Shown piece after piece: positions 41,881-51,452 of a stretch of DNA of 64,000 nt. The stretch covers positions 10,119 through 74,118 of the forward strand of contig DAOUKV010000016.1 in NCBI GenBank assembly GCA_034420955.1. Direction: 5' to 3'. The notes under the pieces are model-generated. The model made no database searches and was not told the DNA's origin. It saw only the letters and a list, made by a program, of their open reading frames with translations. The translations under genes were made by a program, and so were the position numbers. Within the stretch, counting starts at the first letter, position 1, and each line of letters begins with the position of its first letter. Origin of the DNA: Dehalococcoidia bacterium (lineage in GTDB: Bacteria; Chloroflexota; Dehalococcoidia; Lucifugimonadales; UBA1123).

Positions 41881-42729
41881 CTACTCGGCGCAGACGGGCA
41901 CGCCGCCCCTGAAGCCGTCAACGCCGCTCAGGAAGACGGGGATGCAGCCCTCTACGCCGGTATCCTGGACGTTTACGTAGGTTAGCTCGGACAGGTTCTC
42001 CAGAATCGGGGTGATGGAGCCGGTTAGACGGTTTCCCTCGATGGCTAACCACTCCAGGTTGGCCAGGTTGCCCAGTTCTCGCGGCACGTCGCCCGTTAGC
42101 CGGTTGACGCTCAGGTCCATTTCGACCAGGTTAGCGAGCCTGCCGATTTCGGCGGGGATGCCGCCGGTCAGCGCGTTCGCGCTCAGGTTGAGCACCGCGA
42201 GACCGGTGAGCGAGCCGAGTTCCGGCGGAATCTCGCCCGTAAGTTCGTTGCCGTACAGGTGCAGCGCGTATAGCGCGGACAACCTGCCCAGTTCGGGGGG
42301 AATGACGCCGGACAGTCCCTTGACCGTCAGGTCCAACACGACTACGCGCGGCGGGGAGCCGCTGATGACGACGCCCGTCCACTCGGTGATGGGAATGTCG
42401 GCGTTCCAGTTGAGTTCGGCGTCGCCGGCCCCACCGCCGACTAGCTGCGGCGCGGCCGCGAGCAGAGCGGCGCAGTCGTCGGCAAGCCCGCCGACCGCGA
42501 TCGGGTAGGCCGATGTCGCGCCGCCCGGACACATCACCGGGGCGACCGGCGCGGCGGGCACGGCTCCAAACCCGGTCAGCGGAGGGGCGACCGCGCGCGC
42601 CGCGCGCGATTCGCCGGCGCGCGACAGGCTGCCCACCAGTCCGCGATCTTCGGAGAGCAGGGCGAGCGCGATTACCACGGCTATGGTAACCGCCATAACC
42701 ACCTGGCTGATTAGTAGCTCGCGGGACAT
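41881..42729 (-). CDS. Membrane-anchored leucine-rich repeat (LRR) protein
   Basis: N-terminal TM 'VVMAVTIAVVIALALL', then about six 24-aa repeats 'L.GxIPxELGxLxxLxxLxLxxN'. The ATG overlaps the upstream stop (TGATG). Confidence 0.75.
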   Translation of the reverse strand: MSRELLISQVVMAVTIAVVIALALLSEDRGLVGSLSRAGESRAARAVAPPLTGFGAVPAAPVAPVMCPGGATSAYPIAVGGLADDCAALLAAAPQLVGGGAGDAELNWNADIPITEWTGVVISGSPPRVVVLDLTVKGLSGVIPPELGRLSALYALHLYGNELTGEIPPELGSLTGLAVLNLSANALTGGIPAEIGRLANLVEMDLSVNRLTGDVPRELGNLANLEWLAIEGNRLTGSITPILENLSELTYVNVQDTGVEGCIPVFLSGVDGFRGGVPVCAE

Positions 42730-44405
42730 CAGTGCGCCAGCGAGCTGGGCGTCCAGCCTCCGTAAACGGGATACTGAGAGCATATGAACTCTATGTAGGC
42801 GGGCTGGCCGGCGGCGTTCGCCTCCTGCGCGCGTTGGAGGGCGGGAACCACTTCCGACGGCTCGCTCACTCGCTCGGCGTGAAGGCCAAGCTCGGTTGCG
42901 ACTTTGGACATATTCACGTCGTCCGGCCCCATCACGAGGTGTGTGTAAGGATCGTGTCCGGCGCCCCAGAAGCCGGGACCGTAGCCCGCGAATCCGCCGT
43001 TGTTTATGTGCGCTACGGTGATGCCGATGCGTTCTCGAACCGCAACCTCCAGGTTGCCGAGCATATAGCCCACACCCGCGTCGCCGGATACTGCCACGCA
43101 CTGCCTGTCCGGGTGTGCGAGCTTGGCGGCGATTGTCGAGGCCAAGCTGAAGCCGAGAGTGGAGACGTTGCCCCAGCCAAGGAATCCGCGCGGGATGAGC
43201 GTGTCATAGATCGTGCTGAGCTGGTCTCGCGTGTTGCCGGAGTCGTGGGTTACGAACGAGTTATGCGGGTCGAGCGCTTCCATCAAGCCAGCATAGACGC
43301 GGTAGGGGTTGATGGGCGTATCGTCCGACGCCATCGCCTCGCGGTACACCGCCAGGGCGGAGTCGCGCGCCGCCTCGATCTCCGCTTCTACGCCACCATC
43401 CCCGTCGGGCGCCCTGCCCTGCCCGTCGGTGCGCGCGTCTATCTCCCGCGCCAGCGCGTCCAGCGTGAAGCGCGCGTCGCCTATCACGGCGTGCGCCGTC
43501 GGATATATGCGGTTCACGTGAAGCTCGTCTAGGTTGCACTGGATTATCGTCTTGGAAGCCGCGTCGGGTATCGCGTGGCTGAATCGCCCGGGGGAGAGGC
43601 TCGATCCGACGGCGAGAATCGTGTCGCTCTTGGTCAGGTACTCGGTCGTGTGGTCGCCGCGCACGCCGACGAACAGCGGGTGGTCCTCCGGGAAGGCGCC
43701 CTTCGCCTTGAGCGTGGTGATGACCGGCGCGTTGAGCAGTTCCGCCAGCGTCTTCAGCTCCGCGGACGCGCCGGCGTAGATGACGCCTTCGCCCGCGTAT
43801 ATCAGGGGGCTGCCCGCGTTCAACAGCAGGTCGGCGGCCGCGGACACGTCGGCCGGATCAGGCGCCGCCTTCCAGCCCTTGACGGGCGCATAGGGGTCGG
43901 CGGTCTCGTCAAACGTCCCGGAAGCGTCGGGCACGGACAGCACTACTGGGCCCGGACGTCCGCTGCGCAGCATGGTAAACGCGCGACGCATGAACTCGGG
44001 AACGCGCTCCGGCCTGTCTATGTAGCCGTACCACTTGGTTACGGACTTGAGGCTGGCGGTAACGTCGAACTGCGAGTTCTCCGAGCTGCCCGCCGGAACG
44101 CCGTCGGTGATGCACAAGATGGGCGAGCCGTCCTCGAACGCCTGCGCCAGGCCAGCGTAGGCTACCTGGATTCCGGCGGCGTTCACGCCGCCCTGCACTG
44201 TGCAGACGCCGATGCGCTCGCCTCCGGTAACGCGCGAGAATCCGTCGGCCAGCGCGATGGCGTAGCGGTCGTCGCGCATCATCACCATCGGCACCCCTTC
44301 CCGTCCCAGCGCGTTGTTCACCCGGCATACGGGGAAGGTCGAGACCCACTCGATGCCTTCTTGCTTCAATATCCGCGCGATAGCCGTCGCAACGTCAATA
44401 GTCAT
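42729..44405 (-). CDS. ThDP-dependent enzyme (acetolactate synthase large subunit/sulfoacetaldehyde acetyltransferase-like)
   Basis: N-terminal Pyr domain 'GVCTVQGGVNAAG', and C-terminal 'SGDAGVGYMLGNLEVA...HINNGGF' ThDP motif. Confidence 0.85.
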   Translation of the reverse strand: MTIDVATAIARILKQEGIEWVSTFPVCRVNNALGREGVPMVMMRDDRYAIALADGFSRVTGGERIGVCTVQGGVNAAGIQVAYAGLAQAFEDGSPILCITDGVPAGSSENSQFDVTASLKSVTKWYGYIDRPERVPEFMRRAFTMLRSGRPGPVVLSVPDASGTFDETADPYAPVKGWKAAPDPADVSAAADLLLNAGSPLIYAGEGVIYAGASAELKTLAELLNAPVITTLKAKGAFPEDHPLFVGVRGDHTTEYLTKSDTILAVGSSLSPGRFSHAIPDAASKTIIQCNLDELHVNRIYPTAHAVIGDARFTLDALAREIDARTDGQGRAPDGDGGVEAEIEAARDSALAVYREAMASDDTPINPYRVYAGLMEALDPHNSFVTHDSGNTRDQLSTIYDTLIPRGFLGWGNVSTLGFSLASTIAAKLAHPDRQCVAVSGDAGVGYMLGNLEVAVRERIGITVAHINNGGFAGYGPGFWGAGHDPYTHLVMGPDDVNMSKVATELGLHAERVSEPSEVVPALQRAQEANAAGQPAYIEFICSQYPVYGGWTPSSLAH

Positions 44406-44537: not shown

Positions 44538-44567
44538 TTGACACTGCCGTTTTCCGGTGTGTACAAT
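44538..44567 (+). promoter_or_regulatory. Sigma70-like promoter for zur (TTGACA-18 nt-TACAAT, TG-extended)
   Basis: TTGACA at 44538-44543 and TACAAT at 44562-44567, with TG immediately upstream. Confidence 0.5.
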
Positions 44568-44590
44568 ATCATGTATTGATATGTCATATC
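44566..44590. promoter_or_regulatory. Overlapping AT-rich palindromes, candidate Zur/Fur-family operator
   Basis: ATATCA-TGTAT-TGATAT (44566-44582) and GATATG-T-CATATC (44578-44590) overlap the -10 region. They share the octamer AATATCAT with the znuA-upstream repeat. Confidence 0.45.
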
Positions 44591-44663
44591 AGTAACAACG
44601 GACTCAAGGTCGTCCGCATATCTGATATAAAATCTCAGTTGAGCAATCTTACGCGCTGGTCTG

Positions 44664-45167
44664 ATGGTTGTAACGAAACATGCCGCTTCGATAGCGGAGC
44701 AAATCTTGGAAGCGTTCCAGGCCCGAGGATACCGTTCTACGTCGCCTCGGCGCGCGATCGCGGTCGCCATCGGAGCGGAACAGCATCACTTCACCGCGGA
44801 GGAGCTGTGGAGAAAGTTGCCGCGCTCCATAGGCATTGCCACTGTCTATCGCACGCTGAAGATACTGGTGGACGCGGACGTCCTGTGTCGCGTTCTGCTG
44901 GAAGACGGGGGGTTGCGCTATCAGCTGAGCCACCGCGGCCACCACCATCACCTCATCTGCACCGAGTGCGAGGTCTCCCTCGACCTGATCGGCTGCGATA
45001 TAGAGGACACGCTGGAGTCCGCGTCCCACATCCACGACTTCGAGATTACAGGCCACTGGCTGGAAGTTTACGGTCTCTGCGCCGACTGCGCGCCGGACGA
45101 GCAAGAGCTTTCCGGGCGCGGCTCTACTTTCGCGCGGGACGATGCCCACGACGGCCATTGCCATTAG
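44664..45167 (+). CDS. zur: Fur-family metalloregulator, probable Zur
   Basis: Winged-helix 'IATVYRTLKILVDADVL', 'HHHHLICTEC' and 'CADC' (CxxC x2). Adjacent to a ZnuA-type gene. Confidence 0.8.
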   Translation: MVVTKHAASIAEQILEAFQARGYRSTSPRRAIAVAIGAEQHHFTAEELWRKLPRSIGIATVYRTLKILVDADVLCRVLLEDGGLRYQLSHRGHHHHLICTECEVSLDLIGCDIEDTLESASHIHDFEITGHWLEVYGLCADCAPDEQELSGRGSTFARDDAHDGHCH

Positions 45168-45296: not shown

Positions 45297-47756
45297 ATGA
45301 ACGGAAAGTATCTGAAACTGGTTGGACTGTTGATAATACCGGCGCTGCTGCTGTTTGCCATCGCCTGCGGCGGCGATACAGCGCCGGAGCAGCCCGCTCA
45401 GCCCGAGCCGGCCGCGCCCTCGCAGGCTCCGGCGGCTCCGTCAGCAGCGGGGCCGTCAGCTCCGCAGAGTCCGGCGCAGCCCGCCACCCCGGCTCCGGCG
45501 CCCACTGCGGCTTCGGCGACGGCTCCGGCGCCCACCGCGCCATCGACGGGTCGGACGGGTCCGGCGCGGATGACTCAGCCGGTCGCTCAGCCGGCGCCGC
45601 CAGCAGAAAAGCTGGAAATCGTAACGACCAGCAACATCGTTGCCGACTGGGTAAGGGCCGTAGGCCAGGACCGGGTCGAAGTCTTCCCGCTGCTGCCGGT
45701 CAATGCAGACCCGCACACATTCCAGCCGGGCGCGCGGGACATCACCCGCGTCGCCGACGCCGACGCGGTATTCAGCGTCGGGCTGGGACTGGAAGCCGCC
45801 TGGCTGGATGAAATCATCGAGAACGTAGCTGCGGACGCCCCCATCCTAGAGCTCGCCGAACTCGTTGACCCTCTAGACTTCGTCGAGCTAATGGACGAGC
45901 ATGACGACCACATGGACGCTGACGACCACGACGACCACATGGACGCTGACGACCACGACGATCACGAGGAAGTCGAGCTCGCCGGTCGCCTGCTCATCGG
46001 AGACGGCGAGACCGGCATGATGTCCGTTATAGACCTGGAACACGGAGACGTGGAGCAGAACGCCTTCGACATGGGTTCCCGCGCTGGGCGCATCTACGCC
46101 ACCCGTAGCGGGCGCTTCGCCATCGCGGTCGCCAGCGACGCCAATGCCGTTCACGTCTTCGATGGCGGCGTGTACCTCGAAGAACACGGAGACCACTTCG
46201 ATCTGGTGGAAGTTTCGACGCGGCGAATGGGCCTGGACCTGTCCGGAGACAGGCCGGTTCACTTGTACGTCGGCAGCGAGTGGGCATCGGTCTTCTACGA
46301 CGGGTCGGGCGAGATAGTCTTTCTCAACGAACATGAACTGGAAGAAGAGGGCGACGAATACGTACCGCCCACGCTCAACACCGGCGCGCATCACGGCGCG
46401 GCTGTGGAGATGGAAGGCGACCTGTTCGCGGTAACCCTGCAACACCCCGACTACGCATCCAGCCCGGCGGACTACCGCCTGCCGGAGAGCGTAGCCGTGA
46501 TGAACCTGGACGGCCAGAATCTATACCAGGAAGACGGCTGCGAGGGTCTGCACGGGGACGCGGGCAACGGACACATGGCGGTCTTCGGCTGCGTCGGCGG
46601 CGTTCTGTTCGTAGAATCGCACGACGGCGAATACGAAGGCGGATTCATACCCGCGCCCGAGGGATCGTCCGAAGACTTCCGGCTCACCTCCGTCTGGGGC
46701 TACCCTGGCCTGGACCACTTCTTCGCGCTGGGTTCAGCAGTCGGCTTGTACGTCGTCGAACCCGAAGAGGGCGTGATGGAGCAGCTGATACCGGCGTCCG
46801 ATGACCTCAGGCCCATCAACGTAGCGCTCAGCCACGACGGGGAAGCTCTGCTCGTGGTGATGAGCGATGGCCATCTTCACATGTACGAAGCCCACGACCT
46901 GGATCTGCTGGCTTCGGCGCATGACTTCCTGACCGATCCCGTGGAGACGGGCTTCTGGGCGCGTCCCCACGTCGCCACCGCGCCCGGCGCGGTGTTCGTA
47001 ACCGATTCGGTAGGCGGCAAGGTTCTGCAACTCGACGACCACGACTTGGAAACGGTCGAAAGCTGGGACGTCGCCGGCACCCCCACCAAGGTCGCCTTCG
47101 TCGGCATACTGGGCGACGCGGGCGGACATCCGGAAGCGGGTCACGACGCCCACGACGACGACCACGACATGGCCCATGACGACCATGACGACGACCACGA
47201 CGACCATCACGGCCACGCGCACGGCGAACACGACCCGCACTTCTGGTTCGATCCGGTGCGGGTGAAGCAGGCGGTGAACAGCATCTCTGTGCAGCTATCC
47301 TCCATGGATCCGGCCGGGCAGTCCACCTACCGAGCCAACGCTTCCGCCTACATCCAGCAGCTAGACGAGCTACACTCCTGGATCGTAGGGCAGGTGGCGA
47401 CGGTGCCGGAAGGCAACCGCGTGCTGGTAACTTCCCACGACAGCTTCCAGTACTTCGCCCAGCGCTACGGGTTCGAGGTGGCGGGCGCCGTAATCCCGGG
47501 GGTTACGACGGAGGTAGAGCCGTCGGCGCAGGATCTGGCGGAGCTGATCGAAACCATCGAGCACGAGGGCGTTCCCGCCGTGTTCACGGAGACGATAATC
47601 AGCGGCAGGCTGGCGCAGCGCGTCGCAGAGGAGACGGGCGCGAAGCTGGTCGCCGGGCTGTACACCGGCTCACTGAGCGAGCCTGACGGCGATGCCGGCA
47701 CATACCTGGACCTGATGCGCCACGATACGACGATCATAGTCGAGGCGCTGCGCTAG
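45297..47756 (+). CDS. ZnuA/AztC-type zinc ABC substrate-binding lipoprotein with large inserted beta-propeller-like (AztD-like) domain
   Basis: Signal peptide ending in '..AIACGG' and a Pro/Ala linker. ZnuA N-lobe 'IVTTSNIVADWV...NADPHTFQP'. His/Asp-rich tracts at both ends of a ~380-aa insert. ZnuA C-lobe 'HDPHFWFDP...VTSHDSFQYFAQRYG...'. Confidence 0.8.
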   Translation: MNGKYLKLVGLLIIPALLLFAIACGGDTAPEQPAQPEPAAPSQAPAAPSAAGPSAPQSPAQPATPAPAPTAASATAPAPTAPSTGRTGPARMTQPVAQPAPPAEKLEIVTTSNIVADWVRAVGQDRVEVFPLLPVNADPHTFQPGARDITRVADADAVFSVGLGLEAAWLDEIIENVAADAPILELAELVDPLDFVELMDEHDDHMDADDHDDHMDADDHDDHEEVELAGRLLIGDGETGMMSVIDLEHGDVEQNAFDMGSRAGRIYATRSGRFAIAVASDANAVHVFDGGVYLEEHGDHFDLVEVSTRRMGLDLSGDRPVHLYVGSEWASVFYDGSGEIVFLNEHELEEEGDEYVPPTLNTGAHHGAAVEMEGDLFAVTLQHPDYASSPADYRLPESVAVMNLDGQNLYQEDGCEGLHGDAGNGHMAVFGCVGGVLFVESHDGEYEGGFIPAPEGSSEDFRLTSVWGYPGLDHFFALGSAVGLYVVEPEEGVMEQLIPASDDLRPINVALSHDGEALLVVMSDGHLHMYEAHDLDLLASAHDFLTDPVETGFWARPHVATAPGAVFVTDSVGGKVLQLDDHDLETVESWDVAGTPTKVAFVGILGDAGGHPEAGHDAHDDDHDMAHDDHDDDHDDHHGHAHGEHDPHFWFDPVRVKQAVNSISVQLSSMDPAGQSTYRANASAYIQQLDELHSWIVGQVATVPEGNRVLVTSHDSFQYFAQRYGFEVAGAVIPGVTTEVEPSAQDLAELIETIEHEGVPAVFTETIISGRLAQRVAEETGAKLVAGLYTGSLSEPDGDAGTYLDLMRHDTTIIVEALR

Positions 47757-47841: not shown

Positions 47842-47889
47842 GCGGTTCGCGCGCAGCGCGCAGGTTCATCTTTTGGCTAGAAATGTTGA

Positions 47890-47919
47890 TTGACCCTTGC
47901 AAATGCCAAGTGTTAGGAT
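47890..47919 (+). promoter_or_regulatory. Candidate promoter (TTGACC-17/18 nt-TAGGAT)
   Basis: Read directly. About 200 nt upstream of the cupredoxin gene start. Confidence 0.35.
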
Positions 47920-47920
47920 A

Positions 47921-47936
47921 TGTGAAATCAATCACA
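47921..47936. promoter_or_regulatory. Perfect CRP/FNR-type palindrome TGTGA-AATCAA-TCACA
   Basis: Exact match to the TGTGA-N6-TCACA half-site arrangement, immediately downstream of the candidate -10. Confidence 0.35.
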
Positions 47937-48115: not shown

Positions 48116-48580
48116 TTGACGAAACTCGCAGTTGTGGCGTTGCTGCTAGGCATATTCGCGATGGCTTCCGTCGCCTGCGGCCAAGCGGCTCCGACCGGGC
48201 CGTCCGAAACTATCCTCATACGCTCGTCGCCGCCCATCCCCGCGCCGGCGCCCACAAAGGAGCCAGGCGCCGAAGACGTGGGAGAGCGCATCGTTGGCAC
48301 GCCGATCACCGTCAACATGACCGGCGTGGGCACCGCCGCCGATCCGGGCGTGTTTGACCCGGTCAACTTCACGTTCAGCGTCGGAGAGGCGGTCAACTTC
48401 ACGCTCTTCGCAGAGGACGCTTTCCACAGCTTCACCGTCAGCGAACTCGAGATCAACGTAGAAGTCAACGCCGGCGAGTCCGGCGGCTTGGACTTCGTAT
48501 TCGAGGAAGCCGGTACCTACGAGCTAATCTGCGTGCCGCATGAGGCGCTCGGCATGGTCGGCACTATCACCGTACAGTAA
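48116..48580 (+). CDS. Cupredoxin (plastocyanin/azurin-like type-1 copper) lipoprotein
   Basis: TTG start after a GGGGGGGA Shine-Dalgarno. Signal 'LLLGIFAMASVACG'. Copper ligand pattern 'FHSF ... CVPHEALGM' (H...C..H....M). Confidence 0.7.
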   Translation: MTKLAVVALLLGIFAMASVACGQAAPTGPSETILIRSSPPIPAPAPTKEPGAEDVGERIVGTPITVNMTGVGTAADPGVFDPVNFTFSVGEAVNFTLFAEDAFHSFTVSELEINVEVNAGESGGLDFVFEEAGTYELICVPHEALGMVGTITVQ

Positions 48581-48592
48581 AGGCGCTTGACG

Positions 48593-49336
48593 ATGGTGAG
48601 CAGCGCCGCAAGAGCGGCTACGCGAACGCTTAGAGGGTTTCGGGCTTACCAGTGGGCCGGGCTTGCGCTGATCGCGGTATTCTTGGTGGGCGTGCTGGTT
48701 ACGGCATGTTCCGGCAGCAACGATCCCGAGCCTGAGGCCGCGCCCATCCCAACCGTCGCGCCAACGGCGACAGCGGAGCCGACGGCCACTCCCGCGCCGG
48801 GGGAGAACGGCGCGACCGTATCTATCGGAGACTCCACTGTCGCGCGTTACAGGGTGGGAGAAGAGCTGGTGCGCCTCCCCTCCCCAATAGTCGCAGTCGG
48901 CGAGACGTCCGACGTCAGCGGCGCGATCGTGTTCGACGAGAACGGAGCCGTCGTCCCGGACGCCTCGGCGCTGACGGTGAGCATGACCGGCTTCGTAAGC
49001 GACGAGAGCAGGCGAGACGACTGGGTCAGAAGGCAGTTCTCGGGCCAGTTCCCGACCGCCGAGATGACAGTAACCGCCGTCGAGGGTATGCCATGGCCTC
49101 TGCCCGAATCCGGCGGCGCGACTTTCACACTCACCGGCGACATGACCATCATGGGAGCGACAAGCGAGGTGACTTGGGACGTAACGGCCCTGTTCGCGCC
49201 CGGCGCGGTTACGGGCAAGGCTCAGACGGTCGTAACCTTCGAGCAGTTCGAGATGGACAAGCCCTCCCTCCCCTTCATCATCAGCGTCGAAGATGAAATC
49301 GCCCTCGAAATAGATATAGACGCCGCCGTACAGTAA
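48593..49336 (+). CDS. YceI-like domain protein (secreted)
   Basis: TM/signal segment, Thr/Ala/Pro linker, then a YceI-type beta-barrel pattern ('YRVGEEL', 'TFTLTGDMTIMGATSEVTWDV', 'IALEIDIDA'). Confidence 0.7.
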   Translation: MVSSAARAATRTLRGFRAYQWAGLALIAVFLVGVLVTACSGSNDPEPEAAPIPTVAPTATAEPTATPAPGENGATVSIGDSTVARYRVGEELVRLPSPIVAVGETSDVSGAIVFDENGAVVPDASALTVSMTGFVSDESRRDDWVRRQFSGQFPTAEMTVTAVEGMPWPLPESGGATFTLTGDMTIMGATSEVTWDVTALFAPGAVTGKAQTVVTFEQFEMDKPSLPFIISVEDEIALEIDIDAAVQ

Positions 49337-49552: not shown

Positions 49553-50695
49553 ATGAAGCTATCCTGTCTGCAAGAGAATCTGCGCAACGGTCTGTCTATC
49601 GTGGAGCGCGCCGTCGCAACCAGGACGACGCTTCCGATAACTCAGAACGTGTACATGGCGGCCGAAGGCTCGCGTCTGCGGCTGTCCGCCACCAATCTCG
49701 AAATCGCCATCACCACTTGGGTAGGCGCGCAGGTAGAGGAGGAGGGGGCGGTAACCATCCCCGCGCGGCTGCTGACGCAGTTCGTCAACTCCCTGCCACA
49801 GCAGCGCGTCGATGTTACGCTGGAGGACGAGCCGCTGAGACTGGCTATGAAGTGCGCGCGCTACGAGGCGAACATCAACGGACAGGACGCGGACGACTTT
49901 CCCCCGATTCCGACGGTGGACGAGGGCGCCGTGGGCAGGATGGACGCTGCCGTGATGCGCGACGCGATCCGCCACGTGGCGTTCGCGGCCGCCACGGAGG
50001 ACTCGCGGCCCGTGCTTACCGGCGTCAAGGTCGAGATGTCGGGCAACGACTTTACCTTCGCCGCCGCGGACGGATTCCGCCTTGCCGTTTACGAAGGCAA
50101 GCTGTCCGACCCCGTCCCGGAAGACATCAGCTTCATCGTGCCTGCCAGAACGCTCCAGGAAGTGAACCGGCTGCTAGGCTCGCAGTCCGACCCCGTGGAG
50201 TTCACCGTAACGCCGGCCAAGAGCCAGGCTCTGTTCAGGCTCAGCTCCGTAGAACTGGTATCTCAGCTCGTGCAGGGCACGTTCCCCAACTACCGCCAGC
50301 TTGTGCCGGAGCAATACACCACCCGCGTGGTCATTCCGCGCGAGTCGTTCATGCAGGCGACGCGAGCCGCCTCCACGTTCGCGCGCGACGGCTCCGGCAT
50401 CATCCGGCTCAACATATCGTCGGACGAGCAAGAGGAGGCGGGCAAGATAGCGGTATCGGCGCGCGCCGAGGAGCTTGGCGACTACGAGGGCGAGGTGGAC
50501 GCGCAGGTAGAGGGCGATGAGTCCAAGATAGCGTTCAACAGCCGCTTCCTGACCGACGTCTTGGACGTTCTGGAAGATGGCGACGTGGCGCTGGAGACCC
50601 AGACCGCATCCAGCCCGGGCGTAATCAAGCCCGCCGCCAACCCGAACGGGCACTCCTACACGCACGTGGTCATGCCGATGTTCGTGCAGTGGTAA
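49553..50695 (+). CDS. dnaN: DNA polymerase III beta sliding clamp
   Basis: 380 aa, three-domain clamp. 'LLTGVKVE', 'FAAADGFRLA' and 'NSRFLTDVL'. Confidence 0.9.
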   Translation: MKLSCLQENLRNGLSIVERAVATRTTLPITQNVYMAAEGSRLRLSATNLEIAITTWVGAQVEEEGAVTIPARLLTQFVNSLPQQRVDVTLEDEPLRLAMKCARYEANINGQDADDFPPIPTVDEGAVGRMDAAVMRDAIRHVAFAAATEDSRPVLTGVKVEMSGNDFTFAAADGFRLAVYEGKLSDPVPEDISFIVPARTLQEVNRLLGSQSDPVEFTVTPAKSQALFRLSSVELVSQLVQGTFPNYRQLVPEQYTTRVVIPRESFMQATRAASTFARDGSGIIRLNISSDEQEEAGKIAVSARAEELGDYEGEVDAQVEGDESKIAFNSRFLTDVLDVLEDGDVALETQTASSPGVIKPAANPNGHSYTHVVMPMFVQW

Positions 50696-50729: not shown

Positions 50730-51452
50730 TCATGAAGCGGCGAACGACGCGATTGTCTCTCGCTGCCGCGCCGCTAGTTCCGCGATGCCCTTCTCGGCGA
50801 GATCGAGCAACTCGTTCAGCGTTGTACGCGAGAACGCGCCGCGCTCGGCTGTGCCTTGGGCCTCCACGTACTCGCCGGCGCCGGTCATCACGACGTTGAA
50901 GTCCACCTCGGCGCGGCTGTCCTCGTCGTAGCATAGGTCCAGCATCGGCTCGCCATCCACCACGCCGACACTGGCGGCGGCGATGCCGCTCAAGAACGGC
51001 AGCCGCTCGATGTCGCCGCGTTCCAGCATCCCGGCCACGGCCTGGTGAAGCGCGACATACGCTCCCGTAATCGCGGCCGTTCTGGTTCCGCCGTCGGCCT
51101 GGATGACGTCGCAGTCCACCGTCAGCGTCCGCTCTCCGAGCGCGGCCATATCCACCGCGGCGCGCAGCGAGCGTCCGATGAGACGCTGGATCTCCTGCGT
51201 CCGGCCTCTTGGCGTCGTCTCGCGTCGCGTCCGGGTGTTCGTTGCGCGCGGGAGCATCGCGTACTCAGCAGTAACCCAGCCCAGCCCGGAGCCGCGCCTC
51301 CACCGGGGCGTTCGATCCTCGACGCTCACGGCGCACAGAACGCGGGTATCCCCACAGGCGATAAGGGCGGAGCCTTCGGCGTAGCGCTGAACGCCAAGCT
51401 CGAACGTGGTGAGGCGAAGGGCGTCGTTGGACCGACCGTCGGCGCGGGGCAT
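50730..51452 (-). CDS. rph: Ribonuclease PH
   Basis: '[11 protein letters not shown]', '[14 protein letters not shown]' and '[14 protein letters not shown]'. Confidence 0.9.

Follow-up and report, generated by a model that had tools for sequence, protein, structure and literature searches.

An AztD-type propeller nested in the D-loop of an AztC-like solute-binding protein from a Dehalococcoidia bacterium

Direct transfer of zinc from one protein to another is understood mainly from the AztD/AztC pair of Paracoccus. The pair belongs to the AztABCD system of Paracoccus denitrificans, in which AztC (PDB 5W56, 5W57, 5KZJ) is the receptor and AztD (6CK1; Citrobacter koseri 6CMK, 6N01) is a free periplasmic chaperone. 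The question raised here is whether one gene of a sponge- or marine-associated Dehalococcoidia bacterium encodes both partners in a single chain. The gene lies in a 64,000-nucleotide stretch of contig DAOUKV010000016.1 (hereafter, the window; positions are those of the window). It is a single unbroken open reading frame (ORF) of 819 aa at 45297..47756 on the forward strand, encoding an AztC-like zinc solute-binding protein (SBP) with an AztD propeller nested in the D-loop, and is referred to below as the fusion gene. The preliminary description, made from the letters of the window, had inferred that a chaperone and its receptor were fused by domain insertion; this inference is supported, and neither of the two tests named there, the modelling of the fold and the search for an assembly artefact, refutes it. 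In our judgement, the product is probably a membrane-anchored surface lipoprotein that combines a zinc receptor and a metallochaperone.

The protein starts with a lipoprotein signal peptide, identified by sequence reading (aa 1–24, 45297..45368), with the lipobox FAIAC and Cys24. It is followed by a tether recognised by its composition (aa 25–100, 45369..45596), where 23 Ala, 20 Pro, 8 Thr and 7 Gln are found among 76 residues. The N-lobe of the SBP (aa 104–196, 45606..45884) corresponds to positions 1–88 of the AztC profile and contains the metal ligand His140 in the NADPH motif. His/Asp tract 1 (aa 197–225, 45885..45971), with the sequence MDEHDDHMDADDHDDHMDADDHDDHEEVE, is the N-terminal linker to the propeller. 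The AztD-type beta-propeller itself (aa 226–616, 391 residues, 45972..47144) was delimited by the AztD profile, PDB alignments, Foldseek and residue conservation. Then come His/Asp tract 2 (aa 617–639, 47145..47213), which is an acidic/His spacer of variable length directly followed by HGHAHGEHDPHFW, and the H640-x-H642-G motif with the C-lobe of the SBP and the stop codon (aa 640–819, 47214..47756), assigned by AztC profile positions 100–277 and conservation. All these segments are on the forward strand, and the base composition is uniform along the gene.

The coordinates given originally, 45891–47240, run from tract 1 to tract 2 and have to be extended to the whole ORF. Other details of the preliminary description stand. 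The motifs NADPHTFQP, HDPHFWFDP and SHDSFQYF and every one of the quoted blade strings are found in the translation, and the insert of about 380 aa between two His/Asp tracts corresponds to the 391-aa module. The direct repeat of 27 nt in tract 1 is recovered by Tandem Repeats Finder at 45894..45965 on the forward strand (period 27, 2.7 copies, 93% matches), with DHMDADDHD encoded twice.

No Pfam family matches the insert. However, the NCBIfam AztD model (NF038015) matches aa 236–602 over profile positions 3–354 of 356 (E 1.7e-29), and phmmer against the PDB finds solely the two solved AztD proteins, both aligned with the insert end to end (6CMK, 9.7e-28; 6CK1, 2e-26). With E of about 1e-27 to 1e-30, the similarity of the insert to AztD exceeds chance. 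The propeller is about 25–30% identical to them. An AlphaFold2 model was built from a family alignment of 63 sequences, which also serves for the residue counts below. Its mean predicted local distance difference test (pLDDT) score is 83. The propeller mostly exceeds 90, and both His/Asp tracts are below 50 and are predicted to be disordered. In the Foldseek search against the PDB, the best nine matches are all AztD chains (6cmk, 6n01, 6ck1) with E from 1e-28 to 1e-25, target-normalised template modelling scores of 0.81–0.85 and about 385 aligned columns. They are followed by cluster A-I SBPs, including AztC, YfeA, PsaA and TroA, aligned over the C-lobe.

The metal-site residues of AztD are retained. 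In P. denitrificans AztD (PdAztD), site 1 is formed by H124, H167 and H218 in the central pore, and there is a conserved disulfide (PMC6689063). The counterparts of the site 1 ligands are H322, present in 63 of the 63 relatives, H366 (61) and H419 (62), and the cysteine pair C415 and C432, aligned to the PdAztD cysteines, is invariant (63/63 each). Site 2 of PdAztD consists of H99, H102, D104 and the C-terminal H408 (PMC6689063). It lies on the strands at the two termini, and no other site transfers zinc (PMC6689063, PMC7463823). Here H297, H300 and D302 are each conserved in all 63 relatives, and the site 2 glycine G298 (PdAztD G100) in 59. Two nearly invariant histidines, H611 and H616, immediately follow the last propeller strand, and one of them is likely to be the fourth ligand of site 2. 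A free-standing AztD relative, P0121, which is 64% identical to the nested propeller and has a signal peptide, ends in ...GKTKGH; because of that, H611 is the likely counterpart of the C-terminal histidine of AztD. The profile match, the end-to-end alignments with both solved AztDs and the conservation of all AztD metal ligands bear out the earlier claim that the insert is AztD-like, and the fold check proposed with it gave a beta-propeller with AztD at the head of the matches.

Pfam detects the host protein as ZnuA (PF01297) in two separated stretches, with 277 bits against the cut-off of 29. When the lobes are considered one by one, AztC (NF040870) is the top NCBIfam model for both: the N-lobe matches profile positions 1–88 with 69 bits, and the C-lobe, positions 100–277 with 210 bits, the latter compared to 54 bits on the ZnuA model. 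The best PDB matches of the lobes are P. denitrificans AztC (5KZJ, 5W56). The lobes had been described as normal ZnuA lobes; the split PF01297 match and the presence of the motifs agree with that, whereas the profile scores are AztC-like and not those of classical ZnuA. Since the lobes match positions 1–88 and 100–277, the insert replaces profile positions 89–99, which constitute the D-loop. In Paracoccus, the D-loop of AztC is essential for zinc transfer from AztD and has been modelled into the AztD pore, AztD site 2 being then about 10 Å from the AztC site (PMC6689063, PMC7463823). In the fusion, the position of the D-loop holds tract 1, the propeller and tract 2, and an invariant H-x-H-G remains beside a receptor ligand. 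A segment of the Z-loop length is present as well: wild-type AztC aligns with it, and the Z-loop deletion mutant 6XPN leaves a gap there.

The receptor site differs from that of AztC. Three histidines, H140 (NADPH), H648 (DPHFW) and H714 (SHDSF), are conserved in all 63 relatives. Asp279, which AztC and TroA use as a fourth ligand, is aligned to Gly791 ("LYTGSL") in both the AztC and the TroA alignments; 49 relatives have Gly there, 14 lack the residue and none has Asp. At the same time H640 and H642 of the H640-x-H642-G643 motif, eight and six residues before H648, are present in all 63. One of these two histidines probably completes the receptor site or relays zinc to it from site 2. The loss of Asp together with the invariance of H-x-H suggests that the receptor site has co-evolved with the insertion. 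In cluster A-I, a site made of three histidines and no carboxylate is indicative of zinc and not of Mn or Fe.

The lengths of the linkers were compared across the family. Tract 1 varies from 7 to 32 aa and has no invariant residue, and the distance from the propeller exit to the C-lobe is 20–67 aa. The fusion has one of the longest versions of tract 1 (29 aa), owing to the 27-nt duplication. The shortest linkers, 7 and 20 aa, leave little freedom, which suggests that both parts are held close to each other. As the terminal strands of AztD carry site 2, nesting of the propeller through its termini would place this site beside the metal cleft of the receptor.

The architecture is not peculiar to this locus. 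A word-indexed homologue search produced 997 matches, of which the best 120 are 672–835 aa long and 60–86% identical to the fusion, nearly all of them being aligned over at least 86% of the query, and some situated on multi-megabase contigs. A lipobox-like motif occurs within the first 45 aa in 102 of these 120. More than 120 full-length cluster representatives have the same architecture, and a scan of species-representative genomes yielded at least 187 tblastn-confirmed loci with it. We fetched 80 of the 187 loci; all come from Dehalococcoidia, SAR202 or Chloroflexota metagenome-assembled genomes, several from sponges, and many are on finished chromosomes of 3–4.7 Mb. To judge from these loci, the AztD-in-AztC design is common within the Dehalococcoidia. 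In the homologue list Pfam flags ZnuA alone, and the sole source that names its copy calls it ZnuA.

The fusion sequence is present in public sequencing runs, which are metagenomes from sponge, coral and marine sources. The best of these runs has an error-free unitig over 45932–47462 that takes in the propeller, tract 2 and the beginning of the C-lobe; tract 2 is also spanned in a run from an independent study. The unitigs break solely within the 27-nt repeat, and their ends overlap there. The search for RNA gave only runs of unknown kind, with 0.20–0.29 of the sampled words, which probably represent relatives.

The gene is preceded by a gene for a Fur-family metalloregulator of 167 aa (44664..45167, forward strand; PF01475, 85.6 bits), and a Fur homologue is located upstream of the fusion in most related loci. 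The regulator resembles Fur slightly more than the solved Zur proteins, and both the solved structures and the NCBIfam models are ambiguous. We infer from the context that it is Zur; the gene had been called zur outright, and the family assignment stands while the sequence leaves the specificity to the context. The genes downstream are those named originally. The first, at 48116..48580 (forward strand, TTG start at 48116), encodes a cupredoxin lipoprotein of 154 aa (PF00127) with the complete type-1 copper motif, the histidine in AFHSF followed by C-x2-H-x4-M. The second, at 48587..49336 (forward strand, start codon uncertain), encodes a YceI-like lipoprotein (PF04264, 56.5 bits). Since the fusion, the cupredoxin and the YceI-like protein all have lipoprotein-type signals, three consecutive genes encode surface lipoproteins. 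Right after the YceI gene, translation reveals dnaN at 49553–50695 (forward strand) and the RNase PH gene at 50730–51452 (reverse strand).

In a relative with 66% identity, the gene order is Fur, fusion, ABC_tran, ABC-3, and about 30 of the 80 loci are alike. A more distant clade has only an ABC-3 permease downstream (PF00950, 233 bits), with no ATPase nearby. The absence of adjacent znuB and znuC, noted in the preliminary description, holds for the clade of our gene, whereas in many relatives the ATPase and the permease are encoded directly downstream. At least 11 genomes have two fusion copies, and at least six of them pair a copy adjacent to a permease gene with one that has no such neighbour. 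In OZ242042.1, one copy (L044) is intact and adjoins a permease gene, and the second one (L078:8001–10235) has an in-frame stop codon, which may mean a pseudogene or a sequencing error.

The fusion clusters, with support 100, with two related loci, L001 (81% identical) and L082 (76%). All three share the order Fur, fusion, cupredoxin, YceI, dnaN, RNase PH; in L082, dnaN and RNase PH are annotated by Pfam at matching positions. The transporter-less state of this clade, which we call orphan, is derived, because its members branch from within a well-supported group in which most copies are of the operon type. Within the orphan clade, the ratio of nonsynonymous to synonymous substitution rates (dN/dS) is 0.14–0.24 for the N-lobe, 0.16–0.21 for the propeller and 0.23–0.32 for the C-lobe; the tether is the least constrained segment (0.49–0.68). 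The values of 0.14–0.32 in all three folded parts mean that the gene is maintained. The cupredoxin and YceI genes adjoin the fusion in 3 of 82 loci, all in this clade, and hence were rejected as a part of the system family-wide; lineage-specific co-regulation with the fusion is possible.

A sigma-70-like promoter (TTGACA, 18 nt, TACAAT; 44538..44567, forward strand) is situated upstream of the Fur-family gene. It has 11 of 12 matches in the consensus scan, and its −35 and −10 boxes are conserved in L001 and L082. Just past the −10 box, at 44577..44591, lies TGATATG-T-CATATCA, a perfect inverted repeat of 7-1-7 form that has no other perfect match in the window. This palindrome, TGATATGTCATATCA, is probably the operator of the Fur-family (Zur) regulator. 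In the related loci, matches to the consensus TGATAYNNNRTATCA with at most one mismatch are about 50 times as dense in the 1 kb preceding the fusion as in the remaining sequence, and 62 of 80 loci have such a match there.

Another promoter-like block precedes the cupredoxin gene (47884..47935, forward strand). It consists of TTGACC, 18 nt and TAGGAT, followed by the box-like sequence GGATATGTGAAATCA, and is nearly invariant in the window, L001 and L082, whereas the flanking intergenic DNA has diverged. TAGGAT is followed by ATATGTGAAATCAATCAC; TGATTGA at the −35 box and TCAATCA after the −10 box form an inverted repeat. The box has three mismatches to the operator, and the inverted repeat may be an operator partly resembling the Fur-family box. 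The distance from the promoter-like site to the cupredoxin start is about 195 nt. Rfam detects no structured RNA anywhere in the window, this long leader included.

The following mechanism seems likely to us: zinc would be handed over intramolecularly from the nested AztD chaperone to the AztC-like receptor, under Zur-type control and with a remote permease. Under zinc limitation, the Fur-family regulator, Zur by its context, would leave the TGATATG-T-CATATCA operator, and the gene would be derepressed. The lipoprotein would be exported and tethered to the membrane, where both His/Asp tracts and both AztD sites would capture scarce zinc outside the cell. Nesting through the termini would hold site 2 at the mouth of the receptor cleft, and zinc would pass from site 2 (H297, H300, D302 and H611 or H616) to H140, H648 and H714 of the receptor. 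H640-x-H642 would probably help as a relay or as a fourth ligand, a role proposed because the Asp ligand of AztC is missing. The loaded receptor would then deliver zinc to an ABC-3 permease with its ATPase. The orphan copy would presumably use a permease encoded elsewhere; such a partner is plausible in view of the genomes that combine a permease-linked copy with an orphan one and of the clade in which the permease alone adjoins, and orphan zinc SBPs sharing a permease have been documented (PMC7731109).

Several points weigh against this reading. With the AztD model, the whole protein scores 102.7 bits and the isolated insert 105.3 bits, the curated NCBI cut-off being 400; by its sequence, the insert is a distant member of the AztD superfamily and not an AztD as defined by NCBI. 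Similarly, the whole protein scores 271 bits with the AztC model, under the equivalog cut-off of 350 bits, a shortfall that is partly due to the split of the lobes. The predicted template modelling score (pTM) of the AlphaFold2 model is 0.58, and the orientation of the domains is undefined. As the receptor lacks the Asp ligand, affinity or specificity may differ from those of AztC. The 64-kb window contains neither an ABC-3 permease, by tblastn, nor a cognate ATPase. In Paracoccus, the loss of AztD or of the D-loop causes just a mild growth lag (PMC7731109), and the advantage of tethering is assumed.

A broader possibility, which we regard as tentative, is that the D-loop of cluster A-I SBPs is a general socket for repeated insertion of zinc-capture domains, that the H-x-H arm is a ligand-swap relay, and that orphan copies such as this one, whose cupredoxin and YceI neighbours have a conserved promoter block, are extra Zur-regulon antennae feeding a remote permease. 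The modules seen in the loop are one AztD, two AztDs, ZinT with AztD, and the unrelated module of TIGR03772. If this were true, the receptor of the AztD-nested family would have been rewired by losing its Asp ligand and gaining the H-x-H arm, and the arm could serve by turns as a ligand of AztD site 2 and of the receptor site in a covalently wired relay.

The main rival to intramolecular hand-over is that the orphan copy is a Zur-controlled surface trap or buffer that stores or sequesters zinc and does not dock to a permease. The transporter-less synteny is kept in three genomes, in line with the lack of an ABC-3 permease and ATPase in the window, and Paracoccus AztD alone accumulates periplasmic zinc (PMC7731109). 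Moreover, conservation in the orphan clade is slightly lower for the SBP lobes (81–85% amino acid identity) than for the propeller (87–91%), and the C-lobe has dN/dS of 0.23–0.32. However, the three receptor histidines and H-x-H are intact, both lobes are under clear purifying selection, and in the tree the clade falls among copies of the operon type. These genomes commonly have dispersed transporter genes and orphan paralogues, and orphan zinc SBPs normally supply a shared permease (PMC7731109). A mere trap is improbable in view of these observations.

The metal could be other than zinc (Mn, Fe, Ni, Cu), the regulator then being Fur, Mur or Nur. The MntC model of NCBIfam (Deinococcus) equals AztC for the whole protein, with 271 bits, but AztC is the best model lobe by lobe, and the PsaA and MntC matches are more distant. 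The regulator is slightly nearer to Fur than to the solved Zur, a cupredoxin gene adjoins, and His-rich tracts are generally known to bind Ni and Cu as well. Yet the cupredoxin association is confined to 3 of 82 loci, and the receptor has His-His-His without a carboxylate, whereas Mn and Fe receptors of cluster A-I use Glu and Asp. Binding and transfer of zinc is the sole characterised function of AztD, and all its zinc ligands are conserved here. We consider another metal quite unlikely.

The propeller might also act independently of the SBP, for instance as a chaperone for other surface proteins, with the loop serving as a mere anchor. Such an arrangement would agree with the long disordered linkers of this copy, the pTM of 0.58 and the existence of AztD-like propellers that are free-standing or fused to a ZIP permease, to FG-GAP repeats or to a type IX secretion system (T9SS) tail. 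It is hard to reconcile, however, with the insertion exactly at the loop required for AztD-to-AztC transfer (PMC7463823), with the termini of AztD carrying site 2 (PMC6689063) and with the very short linkers in some members. The H-x-H-G beside the receptor ligand is invariant, and the nesting is kept across clades whose propellers are just 28–40% identical, so that independence of the two parts is highly unlikely. Finally, a chimeric assembly of an SBP gene and an aztD gene at the His/Asp tracts, named in the preliminary description as a possible artefact and hinted at by the break of short-read unitigs in the 27-nt repeat of tract 1, is refuted by the at least 187 loci, many of them on finished chromosomes of 3–4.7 Mb, the 120 full-length representatives, the error-free unitig 45932–47462 with the independent-study run spanning tract 2, and the purifying selection on the domains flanking the junctions.

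With intramolecular hand-over thus retained as the preferred reading, the protein can be compared with known systems. It shares with AztABCD the same two families, all ligands of AztD sites 1 and 2, the cysteine pair, the three histidines of AztC, the Fur-family regulator and, in many relatives, the adjacent ATPase and permease. Unlike AztC and AztD, which are diffusible and form only a transient complex, the fusion is one polypeptide produced by domain insertion; its propeller is nested in the SBP and is not a free-standing secreted protein. The fusion is a lipoprotein on a long Ala/Pro tether, and this copy has no adjacent aztAB. Compared with AztC, Asp279 is replaced by Gly or deleted, and the second histidine ligand has an invariant H-x-H-G beside it.

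Streptococcal AdcA (7JJ9) is a ZnuA-like SBP fused to ZinT, and this fusion is thought to speed up zinc capture and hand-over. As in the present protein, a zinc SBP and an accessory zinc-recruiting domain are combined in one lipoprotein of a cell without an outer membrane. However, in AdcA the ZinT lipocalin is appended at the C-terminus, whereas here an AztD propeller is nested in a loop. The AdcA model (NF033605) gives 117 bits against the cut-off of 700, over the SBP part only, and Pfam finds no ZinT match in the fusion protein.

The actinobacterial "anchored repeat" SBPs of TIGR03772 are also cluster A-I SBPs with a large module at the same loop. The N-lobe of the fusion matches positions 1–85 of this profile, and the C-lobe, positions 311–483 of 486, with 184 bits against the cut-off of 350. 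The nested module of TIGR03772 is not AztD; as it adds about 225 profile positions in the same loop, nesting at this site has a precedent. Classical ZnuA (E. coli, Salmonella, Synechocystis) has a three-His site without Asp and a His/acidic loop at the same position, the loop aiding zinc acquisition and interacting with the accessory protein ZinT. In contrast, the lobes of the fusion are closer to those of AztC and TroA, and its loop holds a whole folded chaperone, not just a disordered tract.

The papers on AztD and AztC go no further than describing His-rich tracts as "inserted" in AztD homologues and noting the AdcA ZinT fusion. Our literature search found no described AztC–AztD fusion, nor a ZnuA with a propeller in Chloroflexi or SAR202. 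The system is a domain-nested fusion variant of a known zinc system and not a new kind of system. What is new is that Asp has been lost throughout a family in which H-x-H is invariant, along with the linker anatomy, the enrichment of the operator and the derived orphan clade under selection.

AztD and AztC form no stable complex, and the transfer geometry rests consequently on a docking model. A natural single chain that would tether the donor site 2 by the acceptor cleft is a ready object for crystallography, electron cryo-microscopy, small-angle X-ray scattering and intramolecular kinetics, and the receptor changes bear on protein design. For cells without an outer membrane, the fusion could be a way to stop a soluble chaperone from diffusing off, in parallel to AdcA–ZinT. 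The family has many members in SAR202/Dehalococcoidia, bacteria that abound in the sea and in association with sponges, and the zinc-acquisition capacity there is under-described because Pfam detects ZnuA alone.

The distribution of AztD-like propellers was surveyed by an exhaustive phmmer search with the propeller alone, which yielded 605 representatives at the 50% identity level (E up to 1e-3). Among the best 150 of them, which were classified, 123 are propeller-only proteins, most of them free-standing and about 400 aa long, 12 have the complete N-lobe/propeller/C-lobe arrangement, with the propeller 28% to 63% identical to that of the fusion, and 13 are fragments retaining one lobe. AztD-like propellers are also fused to FG-GAP repeats and to a T9SS tail. 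In P0125, two AztD propellers lie within one ZnuA; P0181 has ZinT (aa 128–281) and AztD (aa 329–705) within one ZnuA; and P0202 has AztD and then ZinT, without SBP lobes. In P0145 (2432 aa), five AztD-like propeller matches (aa 28–2092) are followed by a ZIP permease (PF02535, aa 2114–2422). Unless this is a gene-calling artefact, the protein would join an array of chaperones directly to a zinc transporter of non-ABC type.

The free-standing proteins P0121 and P0124 are 64% and 56% identical, respectively, to the nested propeller; one of the two starts with a signal peptide, whereas a lipobox and a Thr/Pro linker are found in the other. With such identities, close free and nested propellers coexist, and this coexistence could date the insertion or expose later fission.

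Elsewhere in the window, the ORF at 41881–43101 on the reverse strand encodes tandem leucine-rich repeats of the form L-x-x-L-x-L-x-x-N-x-L-T-G-x-I-P-x-E-L-G and a predicted membrane anchor. Repeats of this style are best known from plant leucine-rich repeat proteins. The 5' part of the ORF overlaps an ORF at 42729–44405 that resembles thiamine-diphosphate enzymes, and hence its true start is probably further in.

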